Below are positions 33,077 through 61,871 of a stretch of 64,000 bases of DNA, piece by piece; positions within the stretch are counted from its first letter, which is position 1, and each line of letters begins with the position of its first letter. Source of the stretch: a virus. Its lineage: Duplodnaviria; Heunggongvirae; Uroviricota; Caudoviricetes. A program made the translations under genes and the position numbers. The stretch is taken from the IMG/VR virus record IMGVR_UViG_2657245091_000008, one strand, 5' to 3'. The notes under the pieces were generated by a model that was not told the DNA's origin, did not search any database, and saw nothing but the letters and a program-made list of their open reading frames with translations.

Positions 33077-33108
33077 TAACTTTAAATAATGCCAATTATT
33101 TAAAGTTA
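33077..33108. other. lox-like recombination site candidate
   Basis: TAACTTTAAATAAT-GCCA-ATTATTTAAAGTTA, perfect 14-bp inverted arms (or 12-bp arms with 8-bp spacer ATGCCAAT); arms share TAACTT and ATA with loxP arm ATAACTTCGTATA; about 150 bp upstream of cre-like start. Confidence 0.5.
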
Positions 33109-34364: not shown

Positions 34365-34390
34365 GGCCCCGCATCGCGGGGCTTTATATA
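34365..34390 (+). terminator. Intrinsic terminator after 33319-34356
   Basis: GGCCCCGC-ATC-GCGGGGC followed by TTTATATAT. Confidence 0.5.
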
Positions 34391-35892
34391 TCCAGATCTG
34401 GCATTTCGATATCCGCCAGAACCTGATCTCGGAAAGTTGCCATTTCGGCACCAATATCTTCATTAGCAGGCACATAGTCCACCAGCATAGTGAAGCAGTA
34501 GGTATCCCATCGGTCAGGCGATTTGATGTTTAGCTTTTGCCGCATGTGCTCTTTGCGCATCATCGCCATTTTCCCTTCCTCATTCAGTAAAAAGGGGATT
34601 TTTGACGCTTGCTCTGCCGTTTTAGGGTCACTGTCTATCCGCATACGCCCTGACTTTATGGCATCACGCGCCATAATATTTGCGTAGGCACGCTGATTAA
34701 CAAATCGCTCCCTGTCTTTGTTCGCAAACATGGGTTTTCCCCACCGAATACGTACCGGGTTCGCACCACGACGCACCAACTGCGCACACGTATCAGAACC
34801 AAAACCATCGGCATCAACCGCGATTGTTATATTCGGGTATTTTTCCGGCGTACATTCGTTATATATAAAGTCAGCAAAGGCCAATGGGTCCATAGTGCCA
34901 GGCATCTCCATTACCTTAAAGTTAACAACGCGCCGCTTATCCCTGTGACCAGATACCTTGCAGATGTTGAGGACCGACTTATCTCGCCCATTACCAACGT
35001 CAGCCGTTGCCACCCATCCCCAGTTTTTCTCCAACAACACCTTGCGGCGAGCAGCGCGATCGCATTCATCACGACCAAGCAAATAGCCGTTAATTTCTCG
35101 TGGGAACTGACCAAGCACCTTGACCATATACTCAATAGAATCGCGCCCACCATATTCCAGAAGCTTCTGCTTGATGAATTGTGGTGTGACGAACGGTGAT
35201 TCTTCCGAGTTAAGAACAATTGCTGTCCAGATCCCTTTCGGGTTGTCTGGGGTTTTTGCTTGAGAATGGTGCGAATCGTAGAAATAACCACTTGGCCTTG
35301 TTGGCTGGGATAGCATCAACATCCGGTTATCTTCTTCAGTAAGAGCACCGGTCATTACGCCGATCGCCTTATCAGATATACCAGATGCTTCATCCAGAAT
35401 TAGAAGCAAATGTGCCGCGTGTTCCCCCGCCAGCGCTTCTTCGTTGCCGAGTCGATAACCTTTGCAGAGAACTTCCCAAATCCCCTTACGGGAGCGCTCA
35501 TAAAACATGGTGTCAGAGAGGACAAAATAGGTCTGCAACCACCCATGACGCTTAACTGCATTCGCCCAATACTGTTTAACGTATTTGAATACGCCTGTTT
35601 TTACCTGGCCTATCTTGTTAGCAACAATGATGACACGGGCATCGGGGAACAGGATCATAAAAATCAACAGCAACATCGCGGTAAGGGACGACTTCCCCGT
35701 TCCGTGTCCGGACGTGACGGTCGTCCTACTCCCCGTTTCCTGCACTGACTGAATGATCTGCTGCTGCTGGTGGGAGGGGAACATCCCAAAAATATCGACA
35801 ACAGCCTGGGTAAAGTTGTAGCGGTATTTGATTACCATATCGCGCCAGCGTGGATCGCTGGTGACGCATTTAATCTTGCGCCCGCCAGCCAT
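34384..35892 (-). CDS. pacB: Terminase large subunit (PacB-like)
   Basis: 502 aa; Walker A VTSGHGTGKSS, Walker B LLLILDEAS, C-terminal acidic nuclease-like residues; directly follows pacA-like gene. Confidence 0.8.
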   Translation of the reverse strand: MAGGRKIKCVTSDPRWRDMVIKYRYNFTQAVVDIFGMFPSHQQQQIIQSVQETGSRTTVTSGHGTGKSSLTAMLLLIFMILFPDARVIIVANKIGQVKTGVFKYVKQYWANAVKRHGWLQTYFVLSDTMFYERSRKGIWEVLCKGYRLGNEEALAGEHAAHLLLILDEASGISDKAIGVMTGALTEEDNRMLMLSQPTRPSGYFYDSHHSQAKTPDNPKGIWTAIVLNSEESPFVTPQFIKQKLLEYGGRDSIEYMVKVLGQFPREINGYLLGRDECDRAARRKVLLEKNWGWVATADVGNGRDKSVLNICKVSGHRDKRRVVNFKVMEMPGTMDPLAFADFIYNECTPEKYPNITIAVDADGFGSDTCAQLVRRGANPVRIRWGKPMFANKDRERFVNQRAYANIMARDAIKSGRMRIDSDPKTAEQASKIPFLLNEEGKMAMMRKEHMRQKLNIKSPDRWDTYCFTMLVDYVPANEDIGAEMATFRDQVLADIEMPDLDI

Positions 35893-37256
35893 TAATCATC
35901 CTCCGGCGGTTCTATCGCGATATCATCATCTCCGGCGTCATACCCTGCATCAGATGCATCATAATCACCGTAAATTTCAGCCGTTGCCGAAGGGTCAATA
36001 TCCAGCTCTTCGTCGTTGGCCTCGAATTCTCCAGCTTTACGCTCGCCATTGCGGTCGTAATCTCCGCACCCCAATTCTTCAACAATGGTTGCCACATCCG
36101 CCCGGCGCTCTGCCAGCCATTGCGGATGGTTAGCCTGAAGCGTTGCAAACTCCCTTGCCTCTTTGTCCAGCTGTTCATCATCAACATCATTGACGTCAGA
36201 AACAGGTGGTTCGAGAAGAGTGATAGCTTTCGCCGCGCGCGCCGCGAGGATAGCCGGGACGCTGACCCCCTGGCGCTCGATGTATTCAGCAACACCGATA
36301 TCATCCAGTTCCTCGCGCTCACGCATACGTATAGCGGCGGCGATAACTCTGGCAGCGCGTGCGTCAGCGCCAATGCGATATTCAATCTCTTTGCCACGCT
36401 GTTCGGCCTGTAGGCGTGCTAATTCGAGTTTTTCTCTGGCCTCAGCCTCTTTGAATGCTTGCTGGCGAGCGCTCTGACGAAGCTTTTCATCCCCCTGTCG
36501 CAGCTTTTGTTCGGACTGATATATAGCTGCCAACCTACTGATAAAATCATTCATGTAGTAGGCCGCGTCACTGATTAGACCGAGAAGGCGCTGCCCAGGG
36601 TGCATTCCTTCTGGCTCTTTATCGCCCAAGGCGTCTATTTCCGCCTGTAGACGTTCGGCCTCCTGATCAACAATGCTTTGATACTGAAGTGCGCGCTCTT
36701 GCGCCATTTGAATTGCTAACCGCAGGTGTTCTTCTGCGCCGTTCTTCATCATATCGCGAGCCACATTCGTAGTGGGCAATGTGGCACGCTGCACAGCACC
36801 GCCAGGGATCATTGCTGAAGATCCCTCAATTTTTGGGGCGCTTTTATCTTCTTCGGGGATCATTTTCGCCATTTTTTCGCGCAATGATCTCCTGACAGAT
36901 TCTTTTATCTCATTGTTATTATTGGTATTACTTTCATGATCCGAAGTTTTCTTTCTTGGCATACTTCGGAAAGAACCTGCACCCTGCGAATTGTCAATTT
37001 CTGTAAATTTTGTTTTTTCTGCACCCTCTTCCAGCTTTTTTGTTGCTCTTCCCGCCCGTTTTTTTTCAGGTGATTTGGTGCTTTTTTTTGTTGTCTTTAC
37101 CTGCGACCGCACCTCATTTTTTTTCATATTGAGATGCTTTCTGGCTGTATTGAAGCTAAGACCATGCTCCTCACAGTATTCCTTTACAGTGATCCCTTTT
37201 TCTTCACGCAACGCTATAAAGCGGGCGCGGTGCTCCTCCCAATTAACCAGACTCAT
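35892..37256 (-). CDS. pacA: Terminase small/pac-recognition subunit (PacA-like)
   Basis: 454 aa; N-terminal HTH-like region, highly acidic C-terminus; GATC-rich pac-like cluster inside 5' part; ATGA coupling with lpa-like gene upstream. Confidence 0.7.
   Translation of the reverse strand: MSLVNWEEHRARFIALREEKGITVKEYCEEHGLSFNTARKHLNMKKNEVRSQVKTTKKSTKSPEKKRAGRATKKLEEGAEKTKFTEIDNSQGAGSFRSMPRKKTSDHESNTNNNNEIKESVRRSLREKMAKMIPEEDKSAPKIEGSSAMIPGGAVQRATLPTTNVARDMMKNGAEEHLRLAIQMAQERALQYQSIVDQEAERLQAEIDALGDKEPEGMHPGQRLLGLISDAAYYMNDFISRLAAIYQSEQKLRQGDEKLRQSARQQAFKEAEAREKLELARLQAEQRGKEIEYRIGADARAARVIAAAIRMREREELDDIGVAEYIERQGVSVPAILAARAAKAITLLEPPVSDVNDVDDEQLDKEAREFATLQANHPQWLAERRADVATIVEELGCGDYDRNGERKAGEFEANDEELDIDPSATAEIYGDYDASDAGYDAGDDDIAIEPPEDD
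36800..36945. other. pac-like packaging site candidate (cluster of GATC-containing hexamers)
   Basis: Five GATC within about 140 bp (36807, 36820, 36858, 36886, 36938), four in TGATC(C/T) hexamers, inside the 5' region of pacA as in P1. Confidence 0.4.
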
Positions 37257-37645
37257 AAAGCAACACCACGCTTTTTAACGGCGGCATTCCACAGCTTATT
37301 CGCCATGTCCACCAGCTCTCGTTGCTCTTTTCGCGCCTGTTCGACTGATTTCCTGCTACAGTTTTTAACCAGTAAGCTACCGTATTCAGGCGTGCGCCCG
37401 CGCACCTTGAACTGATATCCGTTCAGACCATGTAGCCAGTATTTTCGTGGATACACACGATCATCCAGCTCACAGATTGCCCTGCTTGAACGAACAAAAT
37501 GACGAATGATGTTAGTTACACTTACTCGTGAAACATGGAGATGAGGGTATTTTTCTTTGGCGAGAGTGGTAATTTCAGTGACTGTCAGATAGCAGTCAGC
37601 CCTGATCATGATATCCGCAATTTCTGCGCTGCTGATTTGTTCCAT
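37253..37645 (-). CDS. Lpa-like late promoter activator (by position upstream of pacA)
   Basis: 130-aa ORF immediately upstream of and overlapping pacA; operator-like motif upstream; assignment by synteny only. Confidence 0.45.
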   Translation of the reverse strand: MEQISSAEIADIMIRADCYLTVTEITTLAKEKYPHLHVSRVSVTNIIRHFVRSSRAICELDDRVYPRKYWLHGLNGYQFKVRGRTPEYGSLLVKNCSRKSVEQARKEQRELVDMANKLWNAAVKKRGVAL

Positions 37646-37753: not shown

Positions 37754-38146
37754 CTACCAGCGAGACAAACGAACAACATGTTTCACTTTTGCGATCCACT
37801 TTCCGCGATAACTATTGATTACGGCCTGTGCCAGCTTCAAATTGGCTTCAAAATCAGCCTTACTACCATCAGACTCCACCAGCATTCCTCCATCTATTTC
37901 TGGTAAACATAGATAATCCTGCTCAACCTGCAGCGGCATTGATGGCTCTCTGAATGGCGTTACTTGCTCTGCTTTCCAGCGAAATCTAACCCTCATCCCC
38001 CTGGTGGTCATTACTAGATAGCCTGTTATAGTGCTTTTATGGCCCACATCAGTACGCGTGGCATTGCATGACACGATCTTACAGTTAGCGATAGACCACT
38101 CCATATTGGTGGCCTGTTGAGTGCTTAATTTGGTAGTCCCGTACAT
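37754..38146 (-). CDS. Hypothetical protein
   Basis: 130-aa ORF, ATGA overlap with upstream gene. Confidence 0.45.
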   Translation of the reverse strand: MYGTTKLSTQQATNMEWSIANCKIVSCNATRTDVGHKSTITGYLVMTTRGMRVRFRWKAEQVTPFREPSMPLQVEQDYLCLPEIDGGMLVESDGSKADFEANLKLAQAVINSYRGKWIAKVKHVVRLSRW

Positions 38147-38721
38147 CAGAAAGCCTCCCAGTCAGTCGCGATAATATCCACACCAGTTGCAAACCAGTCT
38201 GTCTGCGCCTGTAAATCCCCATTCATCATTACCAGGCGAGGCATCACCATCACATCGCACCCTTCCACAATATCGAATGCCTCTTCCGGCAAGAATTCGA
38301 AGAGCTTTTCTTTGCTGCCAATGCTGCCACGGAACATCGATATATAGCTCCCTTTAGGCCATGATGTCCGCCGGGCATCAAGCCCTTTCATCATCCAGTA
38401 AAAAGCCGAGGAAAAAGGGATATTCTTTTTGCCAATGATTACATTATTCGCTTCTGTGTACTTCAGGAACTTAACTAACCTTACCATTGACTCGGATAAC
38501 GCAACGTATGGCTCATGATTGATTGCTGACACGCTTACACCGTGCAATCCAACGCTTACCACTGTCATATCGCCGCTCTGTGCGGTTTCGATATTGACGC
38601 CTTTGCGAACTAATGAGGCGTAAAGTTCCTCTCGCTTTTGGGTCCAGCGTTCCCGCTTCCCTATGAAGTCACTCAAAATGAGATCTTCTTCTGCATATGC
38701 GTTATCGTTCGCCATTAACAT
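38146..38721 (-). CDS. Hypothetical protein with C-terminal DUF2829 (Tad2-like) domain
   Basis: C-terminus FYWMMKGLDARRTSWPKGSYISM...MPRLVMMNGDLQAQTDWFATGVDIIATDWEAF fits the DUF2829 pattern. Confidence 0.45.
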   Translation of the reverse strand: MLMANDNAYAEEDLILSDFIGKRERWTQKREELYASLVRKGVNIETAQSGDMTVVSVGLHGVSVSAINHEPYVALSESMVRLVKFLKYTEANNVIIGKKNIPFSSAFYWMMKGLDARRTSWPKGSYISMFRGSIGSKEKLFEFLPEEAFDIVEGCDVMVMPRLVMMNGDLQAQTDWFATGVDIIATDWEAF

Positions 38722-54142: not shown

Positions 54143-55105
54143 TCATCCCCTAAATCCCGCAGGGATTGACCAATCCTCACGGTCAAATTCAGACCGATAG
54201 CCACGCTGTTTCATCAGGTCAAAGGCTTCACCAATGGTTGCACACCCCTGGGAGCCAGAATAATCCATTGAGAAATCTAGGGCACTGGATTGTTTAGGCT
54301 TATTCACTGCGGTAGCGGCACTACGTATCCATGCAAATTTTTTTGCCAGCTTTTCAGCGGTACGATACAGAGCCTGCCGTTTTGCGTGCCCCTCGTCTGA
54401 ACGACGCTTTGCAGCTCTCGCTTTTGCCGCCGCCAGGCAGTGGTTGGTATGTTCTTCCCTGATTACTGGTTTTTTATCCAGTACCACGTTATCCGTTTGA
54501 GAACTATCTGCTGGTGAAGCCTTTGGCTGAACCGCGCATGATCTTTCTCTTCTTTTGGCTATAGAGTGACTCTTATTTTCTATTGGCTGTTCATTTTGAA
54601 CATGGGGGGACTTGTTCAATTTGAACAGGGGGTTCCCAGTTTCAAAAAAATAACGAACCTTTGAAATCAACTGCTTAACCAGTTTTGTGGCGTTGGCAAA
54701 TTTGATGCCCTGCTTACCCCCTATCTCCATTGCTACATGAATGAAGTGGAGAAATTGTGTCGTAAACCGATATACGTTACACACCTGGGCATTGTTATTC
54801 GCTACCTGATGTTGCTTAACAAGCATTCCGCACTTCGTCGCTTCAGCAAATGCCCGGCGCACAGTAGAAATACTGCGTCCTGTAATCTCGGACATATCAG
54901 CATATGAGCGACGGATCATGTATTCATCGGTAGACCCTGCCAGGTTAGCGAACTCGGCAATAATGGCGCTATGTGAAGGGGAAAGAAGACCGCTATGACG
55001 AGCAAAAAAACTCAACTGATGACCTTTGATTTTTTTGTGGTATTCAGTGTTGTTTTTATACTCAGAAGTGTTGAAAGTTACTGAAACTGAATTTAAAATA
55101 CTCAC
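54143..55105 (-). CDS. Hypothetical HTH-containing protein (possible RepL-type replication/regulatory protein)
   Basis: 320 aa; HTH-like MSEITGRSISTVRRAFAEATKCGMLVKQ; operator-like motifs flank the gene. Confidence 0.45.
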   Translation of the reverse strand: MSILNSVSVTFNTSEYKNNTEYHKKIKGHQLSFFARHSGLLSPSHSAIIAEFANLAGSTDEYMIRRSYADMSEITGRSISTVRRAFAEATKCGMLVKQHQVANNNAQVCNVYRFTTQFLHFIHVAMEIGGKQGIKFANATKLVKQLISKVRYFFETGNPLFKLNKSPHVQNEQPIENKSHSIAKRRERSCAVQPKASPADSSQTDNVVLDKKPVIREEHTNHCLAAAKARAAKRRSDEGHAKRQALYRTAEKLAKKFAWIRSAATAVNKPKQSSALDFSMDYSGSQGCATIGEAFDLMKQRGYRSEFDREDWSIPAGFRG

Positions 55106-55274
55106 CAGATAGTTCCGTGAAAAAATCTATCTACCGTATAAATCTATGGCAGTGGATTTATACACCCAAAAAGCCGCTTCTCAGCGGCTTTTGCTTTTTT
55201 GGCAGTCGCTACCGGAGCAGTGACCGCGATCCTACTCGATCCCATCCACCAGGATCAACAGTGTATATAAATAC

Positions 55275-55305: not shown

Positions 55306-56304
55306 TTACCCCCTTCTAGAAACGAAGAGTAACGGGGTGGTGTTTTTGTTCTCTTTCGGTGATAACTCTGGTTCTTTCTTGCCTGATACCGGTAAGCCAT
55401 AAGTAGCATTTGCCCCAAGAGATTCAAGCATCGCAGCCACTATGCGGGCATCATCTTCAGACTGCATACGGCAGAGCGCCCGGCGCTGTTCTGCGCTGAT
55501 AAAAACAGGCATTTCCTGGATAGCGTCACGCAAAATCCGGCGGCATTGCTTTGCATTTTCCCCCTGGCTTTCCATCATCGCTGTTTGAGCGCGCAGCTTA
55601 TCTCGAAGCTGTATGTTTTCCACTTCAAGGAGCATCAATTCTGATTCCAGGGCTTCACGATGTGCAGATTCGAGCATGGCTTGCTGATTTTTCATTGCTG
55701 AAAAGTGGTGAACCAGATCCGTAGCAGCGTTATCAGTAAAACCTTGTTCGATAAGTGCTGCATGAATAGCCGCATCGCGCTCTTCTGCTGATTCAAGCAT
55801 CAGGCTTTTCTTGTCGAGGCTGATATAGTTAGGCACAGTTACGTAATCAAAGCCGTGGAAAGACTTTACCAGGGATACCGATGAATCTGGACCAGATGTA
55901 GCCCACGACCAACCACCAGCACCAGAATTAATCATGCCCTGAACAATACGCCCGGTGTCTGTATCCAGTATTTCCTGCGTATGCGTAACAATGCCGTTGT
56001 CGTCAATCGAAATGTCGATAGTCCTGTTTGACGGCACGTTCTCCAATACAACAGGCTTCCCATCTACCATCACAACAGAGACTTCCGGCAAGTTCAGGCT
56101 TTTCGTTTTGTTATAGTGCATCGCCCGGCGACCATGACCGTAATAACCATACATCTCACCCAGCGCGATACGCTCTTTTGTTTCTGGCGAGTTGAATGTG
56201 TCTCGTACCGACTGAATGACGTAATTTCGGTTGTTCTGCGGTGTGTGTTTGCGGATTTTCTCTACCAGGGAGAAGCGATCCGTAACAGTATTCAGTGATT
56301 GCAT
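55306..56304 (-). CDS. Putative head morphogenesis protein (prohead protease/scaffold-like, pro position)
   Basis: 332-aa ORF directly downstream of portal-like gene; C-terminal coiled coil; by synteny. Confidence 0.4.
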   Translation of the reverse strand: MQSLNTVTDRFSLVEKIRKHTPQNNRNYVIQSVRDTFNSPETKERIALGEMYGYYGHGRRAMHYNKTKSLNLPEVSVVMVDGKPVVLENVPSNRTIDISIDDNGIVTHTQEILDTDTGRIVQGMINSGAGGWSWATSGPDSSVSLVKSFHGFDYVTVPNYISLDKKSLMLESAEERDAAIHAALIEQGFTDNAATDLVHHFSAMKNQQAMLESAHREALESELMLLEVENIQLRDKLRAQTAMMESQGENAKQCRRILRDAIQEMPVFISAEQRRALCRMQSEDDARIVAAMLESLGANATYGLPVSGKKEPELSPKENKNTTPLLFVSRRG

Positions 56305-59544: not shown

Positions 59545-59913
59545 TTACCCGGCATAACCGTTAGCTTTCACCCAGCTTATGGTCTGCTCTTTAGCCTGCT
59601 CCAACGTAAGGAACTCGCCAACATAGTTTGAGATCCCACGCAGCGCATCAATAAATTCCATTTGTGTGGACTTTGTGAAGACACCGCCCAAGAAGTCAGT
59701 CACTATCTTAGGGACTTCATCTACAACAGGATCAGTCTGTTGTTGCGGTTCCGCTACCGGTTGCGCGGCAGTCCCCAGGCCCAATTTCAGCATCACATCA
59801 ACAATCTGCTTACCAATGGTGACGCGTTGCAATACTGGCGCAGTTTTCTGCGCCTGCATTAGATCTGATAGCTCTTTACCTAATTTCAGGCGGTCTAAAA
59901 CAGATATGGTCAT
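59545..59913 (-). CDS. Hypothetical small protein (DdrA-like position)
   Basis: 122-aa ORF coupled to darA-like gene stop. Confidence 0.4.
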   Translation of the reverse strand: MTISVLDRLKLGKELSDLMQAQKTAPVLQRVTIGKQIVDVMLKLGLGTAAQPVAEPQQQTDPVVDEVPKIVTDFLGGVFTKSTQMEFIDALRGISNYVGEFLTLEQAKEQTISWVKANGYAG

Positions 59914-61871
59914 TAAGCACCTCCCTGCTGAATTTCAGCCAGAATGTTGATCAGGTAGTCAACTGCTGCACCCACAGTGGCTTCGTTCTCGTCGTATCGA
60001 CCTGCACTGATTAGAGCGTTTGCTGCTTCCTGCACATGATCAAGTTCAGCACTGATGACCGTCAGATCGCGGGATGTAAACTGCTCCGGCACGGATTTCA
60101 GGTACTCCAGCGCTTTATCTGCCTCCTGATCAGCTTCACTTGCTGATTCACCCGTTTCTTCTGGCTCCTGTTCTGGTGCTGGTTGTGGTTGTGATTCTGG
60201 CTCAACCATATGCTCTGTTTTTACTTCGCTTGAATGATTTTGAAGGGCGTTATACACGTCCATAATGAAAAGGTTCTCCCCATCACTAAGTGGATACGCC
60301 ACGTTTGGAAACGCTTTGCGGAAAAGAATTTTCACTTGCGCCTTGAATGTTTTCAGGTCACTGCCAAACAGGTCCACATAGCCATCAATATGTTTCGACA
60401 TGCTGGACGCAACCAATTGGCCTGCAAAATCTTTCAGCTCATCTTCATCAGGAAGATAGAGCAACTCGTACTGGCTGACTTCTTCATCTGTCAGTTTACG
60501 GTCATACGTAATGATACCGTGACGAGCATATTCGTAATACTGATCAGCCTGGTCAGGACGATCAAGCACGGCTTTATTTCCATCCGGAACAGCACCAACA
60601 CCAGCCGGGCGAGATTGAAGTGCATAGTGGTATTTACCTACATCTTGGCTCTCTGGTTGTAATACTGGGTTCGTTTCGGGGTCTGTCTGTGGTGGTTCGG
60701 AGTCTTCCAACTGGCCTGGTAACACATCAACTTTATATTTATCTGCGTTATGCTCTCGGTAGGCTTTAAGTAATTTGGTTGCAGCATCTGCCAAACTGCC
60801 TCCTTTGACAGCACTGGCATCAATACTGAATTTACCTTCAGGTGCTACTATCGTAACGAAATTGTCACTGCCGGACGTGACATAATTAACTTCAGCGCCA
60901 TTATCCAGCACTGTTTTTCCGTCAATGGCAAGATTATGTTTTACATGTCGCAGCTGGTCACTAAACGCTCGTTCTTTCGTTTTTTCACCTTTAGCAGACA
61001 ACAATTTATCGCGTTTTGCTTGTAATTCCTCGTTGATGGCTTTCTGGGCATCAAGTTTTTTTTGCATCTCCGTAAGAGCAGCACGCTTTTCAGTCAGCCC
61101 ACGTTGCGCAACTTCCACCTGATCAATCATTATTGACCGTTCTTCTGCCAGTTTATCTGCTTCATTGAGATAACTCTCAATATCTGCCTTCATTTTGTCC
61201 TGGCGCTCTTTTGCTTTCTTAAATTTTTCGCTGTTACGCTCAATCAAATTAGATAGCGCCTGGCATACCTGGCTTAAAGAAACATCTCTCCCACCAATCG
61301 GGGCGACAACGTGAGTTACGTTACGTTTATTAAGTAAAAACTGAAATGCAACAAGCTCGTCGTTACTCTTTATTTTTGCCCCGTCAGCTGTTGGAGAGTG
61401 GAAAATTATGCTTGTACTCTGCCCGTCAGTAAGCGGTATCTGCGCGGTCAAAACAGGGATATTAGCTACCCGACGTACACGACCGATAATCGCACCACCA
61501 ATACAATTACGTCCATTTTCATCGGTCCCAGCTTCATCAGTCCCTGCCATAATATTCGTACCATTCAGGCCACGATTCAGCGCACGGACGAAAGCTCGCA
61601 TTGTTTGAGCTAACCGAATTCTGGTTGTAGTTATGGACTCAAACATAGCTTCGTCAGACACAACCAGAATTTCATTGCCCATATAGGCAAGCTCAATATC
61701 TTCTAAGGTCGCCGCCTCAAAAATCAGGTCATCTTCGCTTAATTCTTCTGAAGACCAGCGACTTGGCATATAGCCGGGGATCGTATCAGCAAAAGTAGAC
61801 TGAATATTAATTCGTAAAGGATTGTTAATCATGCTCATCCTCCAGGCGCGCGATTTCTTCTTTAAGAGCAC
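59913..61871 (-). CDS. DarA-like internal head/antirestriction protein
   Basis: 652-aa ORF with central coiled coil and acidic C-terminus; flanked by hdf-like, lydA/lydB-like and cin as in P1 darA operon; by synteny and size. Confidence 0.45.
   Translation of the reverse strand: MLLKKKSRAWRMSMINNPLRINIQSTFADTIPGYMPSRWSSEELSEDDLIFEAATLEDIELAYMGNEILVVSDEAMFESITTTRIRLAQTMRAFVRALNRGLNGTNIMAGTDEAGTDENGRNCIGGAIIGRVRRVANIPVLTAQIPLTDGQSTSIIFHSPTADGAKIKSNDELVAFQFLLNKRNVTHVVAPIGGRDVSLSQVCQALSNLIERNSEKFKKAKERQDKMKADIESYLNEADKLAEERSIMIDQVEVAQRGLTEKRAALTEMQKKLDAQKAINEELQAKRDKLLSAKGEKTKERAFSDQLRHVKHNLAIDGKTVLDNGAEVNYVTSGSDNFVTIVAPEGKFSIDASAVKGGSLADAATKLLKAYREHNADKYKVDVLPGQLEDSEPPQTDPETNPVLQPESQDVGKYHYALQSRPAGVGAVPDGNKAVLDRPDQADQYYEYARHGIITYDRKLTDEEVSQYELLYLPDEDELKDFAGQLVASSMSKHIDGYVDLFGSDLKTFKAQVKILFRKAFPNVAYPLSDGENLFIMDVYNALQNHSSEVKTEHMVEPESQPQPAPEQEPEETGESASEADQEADKALEYLKSVPEQFTSRDLTVISAELDHVQEAANALISAGRYDENEATVGAAVDYLINILAEIQQGGA

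Follow-up and report, generated by a model that had tools for sequence, protein, structure and literature searches.

A conserved GATC array within pacA as the probable recognition part of the packaging site in D6-like plasmid-prophages

Where does a D6-like plasmid-prophage begin to package its DNA? The question is raised by a stretch of 64,000 nucleotides (IMG/VR virus record IMGVR_UViG_2657245091_000008, Caudoviricetes; hereafter the window), in which five GATC sites lie close together in the small terminase gene pacA. The original prediction, made from the letters of the DNA, had compared this cluster (36800-36945) with the packaging initiation (pac) site of phage P1, which it described as a group of Dam-methylatable TGATC(A/G) hexamers inside pacA. 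The P1 record and the literature (PMC10028697) agree with that description. On the basis of sequence comparisons, we find it likely that the five-site array serves as the recognition part of the D6-like phage's pac site and the counterpart of the P1 hexamer arrays.

The array is carried by an open reading frame (ORF) of 1365 nucleotides, whose DNA is 99.7% identical to pacA of Escherichia phage D6. The two genes differ at four bases, with no difference in the flagged region. The product, PacA, matched phrog_1711 (terminase, 2e-183) and small-terminase PHROGs. Pfam and NCBIfam returned no family at their default thresholds, and a search for a related solved structure found none. PacA consists of an N-terminal helix-turn-helix (residues 7–42; sub-threshold HTH_23 and HTH_Tnp_1 matches), a basic linker (approximately residues 45–165), and a conserved C-terminal part. 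The linker evolves fast, and the array was found in its coding sequence, at nucleotides 316–450 of the gene, i.e., in the 5′ third of pacA as predicted. Since the signal is part of pacA, the site and its presumed reader protein are inherited together.

The five GATC sites (36807-36810, 36820-36823, 36858-36861, 36886-36889, and 36938-36941) occupy 135 bp, in line with the predicted 140 bp or so. This is the tightest five-site span of the window, and the next independent one measures 270 bp. With both strands read, four sites belong to a TGATC(C/T) hexamer, as had been stated (TGATCC at 36806 (−), 36857 (−), and 36937 (+); TGATCT at 36885 (+)), and the fifth, at 36820, reads AGATCC/GGATCT. TGATCA does not occur in 36800-36945. 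The conserved unit turned out to be longer than the hexamer: it is an asymmetric sequence of 10–11 bp, AAATGATCCC(T), which is present in both orientations and forms direct and inverted pairs. GGGATCATT occurs twice in the window, 51 bp apart, with AATGATCTCC as the inverted partner, and the 64 kb contain two perfect AATGATCCC 9-mers in total, both of them within the array. On the coding strand, the elements at nucleotides 316, 368, and 434 share one orientation, which is opposite to that of the elements at 396 and 447. Neighbors of the same orientation are spaced by 52 and 51 bp, which corresponds to about five helical turns. A 74% relative (L006) displays four perfect AAATGATCCCT copies, which form two inverted pairs whose arms are separated by 16 bp and 3 bp.

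Inverted repeats of this kind could also act in the RNA, as hairpins of the pacA mRNA that control translation or stability. The 171-nucleotide RNA folds better than shuffled sequences (z = −3.1), and the arms pair over 9–11 bp; however, any palindromic GATC-centered repeats placed in two orientations would fold. Where relatives have different arms (GAGATCATT and GGGATCTTC in D6 against GGGATCATT), the partner is unchanged, and thus compensation is lacking. P1-type arrays elsewhere are direct 12-bp repeats devoid of such hairpins, and no Rfam match was obtained. We consider the hairpin explanation extremely unlikely.

The conservation of the array was assessed using a tblastn search against plasmids, which yielded 141 records with this PacA at identities from 100% to approximately 25%. 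In plasmids with PacA proteins 94, 93, 74, 73, and 68% identical, the five sites were found exactly at nucleotides 316, 368, 396, 434, and 447, and GATCs elsewhere in pacA were variable, being gained or lost. The linker DNA around the sites is only about 61–64% identical among the relatives, so that the sites stand out as islands of identity. All five were kept in 24 of the 26 distinct linker sequences of the D6 group, plasmids and viral contigs included. In the array core, 20 of 20 bases were invariant across diverged relatives, as opposed to 38–42% in the rest of the linker; in 100,000 permutations, five random tetramers equaled this result no more than 5 times (P ≤ 5e-5).

Two pacA copies, those of L008 (NZ_CP069647) and L010 (NZ_MK356558, a 168-kb Salmonella plasmid), are frameshifted or broken into short ORFs, with the five GATC elements intact. 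These disrupted genes are probably recent pseudogenes in defective prophages.

Conservation of this kind could reflect the protein or the DNA. The GATCs might be a by-product of selection on conserved PacA peptide motifs (D-H, G/R-S, and M-I-P twice) and have no DNA role; M-I-P and D-H are indeed conserved wherever the sites are. The amino acid sequence alone predicts 1.9 GATCs in this stretch, as obtained from synonymous resampling with the codon usage of the window. Five are observed, however, and the synonymous choice is thus biased toward GATC (P = 0.008). The sites make use of all three reading frames, GAT-C (316), xGA-TCx (368, 434), and xxG-ATC (396, 447), and at nucleotides 368 and 434 the first codon swaps between AGA (Arg) and GGA (Gly) with GATC retained. 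Because three frames are used and the Arg–Gly changes leave GATC in place, selection acts on the DNA, rather than on the protein, to keep the sites. Across lineages, it is again the DNA word that is common, encoded as DH, DQ, MI, GS, RS, or VIT, and the surrounding linker tolerates many substitutions and indels. The peptide explanation has therefore very little chance of being right for the array. It gains some ground at an isolated GATC at nucleotide 63, which lies in the conserved G-I-T codons of the helix-turn-helix. This site is kept in the D6 group, and L058, the nearest outgroup (an uncultured relative with 55% identity), has GGA ATT there. Its conservation could be explained by protein constraint, and its membership in pac is uncertain.

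A further 89 loci were obtained by scanning genomes and viral contigs, and these were grouped into 13 lineages at 70% identity of the region. GATC arrays were found in pacA at nucleotides ~120–470 in all 13 lineages, P1 among them. The GATC density over the lineages was 19.9 per kb at nucleotides 140–480 and 3.8 per kb in the rest of pacA. Twelve lineages are bipartite: their left array, at nucleotides 119–260, often repeats TGATCA strictly every 12 bp, and the right one lies at nucleotides 300–470. In an unbiased k-mer count, no word was shared more widely than AAATGAT (10 of the 13 lineages, null maximum 8). It goes back to GCGAAAATGATC, which in the Xenorhabdus and Rosenbergiella lineages is the first right-hand site, and the identical 12-mer constitutes element 3 of D6; Citrobacter has GCCAAAATGATC in its place. 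Owing to this shared 12-mer, the D6 array probably corresponds to the right-hand (HEX3) array. L058 has a left array of TGATCA, GGATCA, and GGATCA, spaced by 12 bp, at nucleotides 157, 169, and 181, where the D6 group shows a four-codon gap. Its right array contains five sites, built from TGATCC/GGATCA units as in D6, with some at other places. Since the five-site array is kept with some of its members displaced, individual sites turn over as the array persists. A GATC array in pacA is accordingly a shared trait of the whole P1 superfamily, with unit, copy number, and layout varying over time.

In lineages where pacA follows a divergent parM instead of lpa, a second GATC cluster is present just upstream of the pacA start. 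It was seen 12–176 bp before pacA in L011, L015, and L063 (Citrobacter-type) and in L086, L095, and L013, with up to six sites; those of L011 include −125, −98, −86, −72, and −60.

The pac-like reading put forward in the original prediction is thus supported by the equivalent position in the gene to that of P1 pac, the DNA-level conservation in the D6 group, and the arrays in every lineage. Several observations weigh against it. An elevated GATC density, whose absence had been named as grounds for refutation, was confirmed locally, the cluster being the densest in the window and the density five-fold over the rest of pacA family-wide, but it did not stand out on the scale of the window. The window contains 232 GATCs, with 251 expected, and thus shows no overall excess; random placement of 232 sites yielded five sites spanning ≤135 bp somewhere in 25% of the trials (P ~0.25). 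The density of the cluster alone is not significant window-wide. A chance cluster without function would agree with both numbers, but the five sites are positionally conserved through ~38% nucleotide divergence and the array recurs in 13 of 13 lineages, leaving this explanation a vanishingly small probability.

Most of the remaining counterarguments concern the likeness to P1. None of the five D6 hexamers matches the TGATC(A/G) consensus (three TGATCC, one TGATCT, and one AGATCC), the bipartite layout of P1 is not reproduced, and the D6 group has no GATC between pacA nucleotides 64 and 315, the place of the left array in the 12 other lineages. The IHF consensus (WATCAANNNNTTR) was not found at ≤1 mismatch in pacA nucleotides 100–560 of D6, L006, L007, and L058, by a scan that recovered the P1 site as a control and applied a loose consensus at a single threshold. 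The PacA proteins of D6 and P1 are about 22% identical overall and can be aligned at the N-terminal helix-turn-helix and the C-terminal part; a tblastn search at 1e-5 did not link D6 PacA to P1. Their homology is accepted because these two parts align and the PHROG profiles match. Neither D6 GenBank record annotates a pac site. Finally, two IMG/VR contigs have lost one site each through a single T-to-C change that yields GACC: L035 at nucleotide 368 and L056 at nucleotide 396, the latter also with an Ile to Thr replacement. The original prediction was right that the hexamer differs from P1, and "slightly" was too mild in view of the asymmetric 10–11 bp unit, the missing left array, and the IHF result. 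As the TGATCA/G hexamer and the 4+3 layout are both missing, we classify the array as a D6-type variant that probably works like P1 pac, and not as a standard P1 pac site.

If the array serves as the recognition part of pac, the following course of events can be proposed. Late in infection, PacA would bind several AAATGATCC(C/T) elements through its N-terminal helix-turn-helix, and PacA together with PacB would cut the concatemer at or beside the array. Headful packaging would then run toward pacB, c1, and rox. With a GATC in each element, host Dam and the Dam-family enzyme of the phage might gate cleavage: by analogy with P1, cutting would take place at fully methylated sites, and sites that are hemimethylated just after replication would be bound without being cut. 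The hosts are Dam-positive enterobacteria. The phage enzyme is represented at the edge of the window by a D12-class adenine methylase, of which the first 182 residues are encoded there. Its complete D6 homologue, annotated as orf63 and dmt-like, scored 249 bits on TIGR00571 (dam; cut-off 115), suggesting specificity for GATC.

Methylation would also be central if the array were a regulatory or sequestration cluster of the Dam/SeqA type, setting the timing of pacA-pacB or marking new DNA, with the real pac elsewhere. Clustered GATCs serve sequestration at replication origins, some lineages have GATC clusters upstream of pacA, and a conserved island free of GATC lies 55 bp upstream of the array. 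No promoter-like site was found in or beside the array, however, and the conserved 10–11 bp unit implies that the reader is sequence-specific and is neither Dam nor SeqA. Moreover, the array occupies the gene position of the experimentally defined P1 pac hexamers, which are required for packaging. We therefore regard such a role as unlikely, though less so than the peptide, hairpin, and chance explanations.

Two other groups of GATC sites were noted in the window. Three sites within 29 bp (55228-55256) lie between the ORFs 54143-55105 (−) and 55306-56304 (−). The former encodes 320 residues, a length equal to that of D6 repL, and the latter 332 residues, the length of D6 pro, the head protease. 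This group may be a Dam-sensitive control or origin element. The second densest cluster of the window, five sites in 270 bp (59862-60131), overlaps the start of a 652-residue ORF (59913-61871, −).

The assignment of the array to pac leaves room for a bolder proposal, namely that the D6 group rebuilt a P1-type signal into a one-armed, IHF-independent one, with the specificity of PacA shifted from TGATCA to AAATGATCCC inverted pairs and with no cross-reaction between D6 and P1. The putative recognition helix reads NTARKH (ending in K40-H41) in the D6 group and NTARRY or NTARRE elsewhere, a change that coincides with the proposed shift. We hold this proposal tentatively and regard it as possible rather than probable. 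Were it true, phagemid and transduction tools would gain a second Dam-gated packaging signal, and D6 would be a natural case of a terminase co-evolving with a site in its own gene.

The cut may lie outside 36800-36945. One candidate region is the 48-bp gap between elements 1 and 2 (36890-36937), which is 73% A+T. A second, weak candidate is the GATC-free island upstream of the array (Table 1), which is conserved in the D6 group and L058, synonymous positions included. Within it, A(T/C)TGACAA reads as the reverse complement of the TTGTCAGT located where the P1 cut has been mapped. The ACTGAC/TTGTCAGT word was found between the arrays in 5 of the 13 lineages (post hoc P ~0.014); it is absent from a close P1 relative and has the opposite orientation in P1. 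As a shared cut-site motif, ACTGAC proved too weak to place the cut, and the k-mer count returned only the GATC flanks (AAATGAT). The TGTCAG word at D6 nucleotides 358–363 was also rejected, as it is not conserved.

In the draft IMG genome 2537562191, a D6-like plasmid is split at pacA nucleotides 321–330, where contig L061 ends and contig L050 starts. The two ends overlap by 10 nucleotides (ATGAAAATAA), just 3′ of the first GATC element. The break could have arisen by chance or could mark a physical DNA end; when contig ends were taken as a proxy for DNA ends, the 28 viral contigs scanned showed no other break at these nucleotides.

The surroundings of the array are those of a D6-like element (Table 1). 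The gene order lpa-pacA-pacB-c1-rox, in which c1 is the repressor gene, agrees with both D6 and P1, and the rox site stands to the array as lox does to pac in P1. Position 1 of the window corresponds to D6 61995, and window 1-35892 was compared with D6 61995-91159 plus 1-2800. The first 20 kb showed 95.6% identity to D6, with gaps, and the interval from the methylase gene to pacA is approximately 3.9 kb longer in the window than in D6. Given this extra DNA and the lower identity of the first 20 kb relative to pacA, the source is a D6-like plasmid-prophage, a mosaic variant and not D6 itself. Two genes upstream of lpa, an ORF of 191 residues (38146-38721, −) contains a Tad2-like domain (Thoeris anti-defence 2; PF11195, 1.1e-9, residues 103–190); the D6 record labels it as hypothetical (orf6).

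Table 1. Features of the window that relate to the proposed packaging site (window coordinates; nt, nucleotide position in pacA)
Feature	Coordinates	Strand	Sequence	Basis or remarks
Dam-family N6-adenine methyltransferase, 5′ part (182 codons)	1-546	−		PF02086, 5e-36; cut by the window edge
rox site for Dre recombinase	33077-33108			3.7 kb past the array, on the side toward which pacA is transcribed
pacB (large terminase / pacase B)	34384-35892	−		phrog_2 large terminase, 2e-40; directly downstream of pacA
pacA (small terminase / pacase A subunit)	35892-37256	−		454 residues; ORF, D6 identity, PHROG
Element 5, nt 447	36804-36813	−	AATGATCCCT	Direct repeat of element 3 at 51 bp
Element 4, nt 434	36818-36826	+	AAGATCCCT	Degenerate copy; relatives have AATGATCCCT or GATGATCTCT
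Element 3, nt 396	36855-36865	−	AAATGATCCCC	Within GCGAAAATGATC
Element 2, nt 368	36883-36892	+	AATGATCTCC	Inverted partner of element 3; relatives have perfect AAATGATCCC
Element 1, nt 316	36934-36944	+	TCATGATCCGA	TGATCC on +; whole D6 group, absent in L058
GATC-free conserved island (ATTGACAA), nt 245-267	36990-37012	−	CAAAATTTACAGAAATTGACAAT	23 bp
Isolated GATC, nt 63	37191-37194		GGGATCAC	Codons G-I-T of the helix-turn-helix
lpa (late promoter activator)	37253-37645	−		PF25716, 5e-57; its end overlaps the pacA start by 4 nucleotides

To a specialist, a pac-like array in D6 pacA comes as no surprise, and only the asymmetric unit and the lack of a left arm are mildly unexpected. What is new is the pattern across the family, together with the lost left arm. 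Plasmid-prophages of the D6 type are common in E. coli and Salmonella, as indicated by the 141 plasmid records with this pacA. Knowledge of the D6 pac signal would improve the prediction of which DNA is packaged and transduced, and would permit D6-based phagemids without cross-reaction with P1 vectors. The 13 lineages also provide natural variants for studying the co-evolution of a small terminase with a methylation-gated site.

Packaging signals within the small-terminase gene are also found in other headful phages. P22 (gene 3), SPP1 (gene 1), and Sf6 have pac inside this gene, read by an N-terminal helix-turn-helix, and resemble the D6 array in the location of the signal and in headful packaging; none of these sites is known as a GATC array or as controlled by methylation. 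Nearer to D6, the pacA arrays of the Pantoea, Xenorhabdus, Serratia, Citrobacter, Rosenbergiella, and L058 lineages share its gene position. These arrays of the P1 superfamily are bipartite, whereas the left array is lacking in the D6 group only, which instead has extra sites at nucleotides 316 and 434.

The closest functional comparison is with P1 itself, whose pac covers about 161–162 bp inside pacA (161 bp in PMC10028697) and comprises seven Dam hexamers, TGATCA/G, in the HEX4 and HEX3 arrays (PMC10028697). Hemimethylated pac is bound and methylation promotes its cleavage, and synonymous recoding of the hexamers lowered the phage titer about 9-fold (PMC10028697). In the P1 record, four TGATCA hexamers are located at pacA nucleotides 195–229 and three TGATCG/A hexamers at 325–348, with the annotated IHF site at 256–268 and the staggered cuts at 275–285. 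The palindromic TGATCA of P1 contrasts with the asymmetric AAATGATCC(C/T) of D6, which occurs in two orientations, and seven units with five. P1 has 4+3 arrays around a hexamer-free core of ~90 bp that contains the cut made by PacA and PacB, whereas D6 has no left array and its largest gap is 52 bp. The two sites are alike in lying in the 5′ third of pacA within a lpa-pacA-pacB-c1-recombination-site module, in consisting of several GATC-centered repeats within ~140 bp, and in being accompanied by a phage-encoded Dam-type methylase. In both phages, the gene of the presumed reader protein has the array within its coding sequence.

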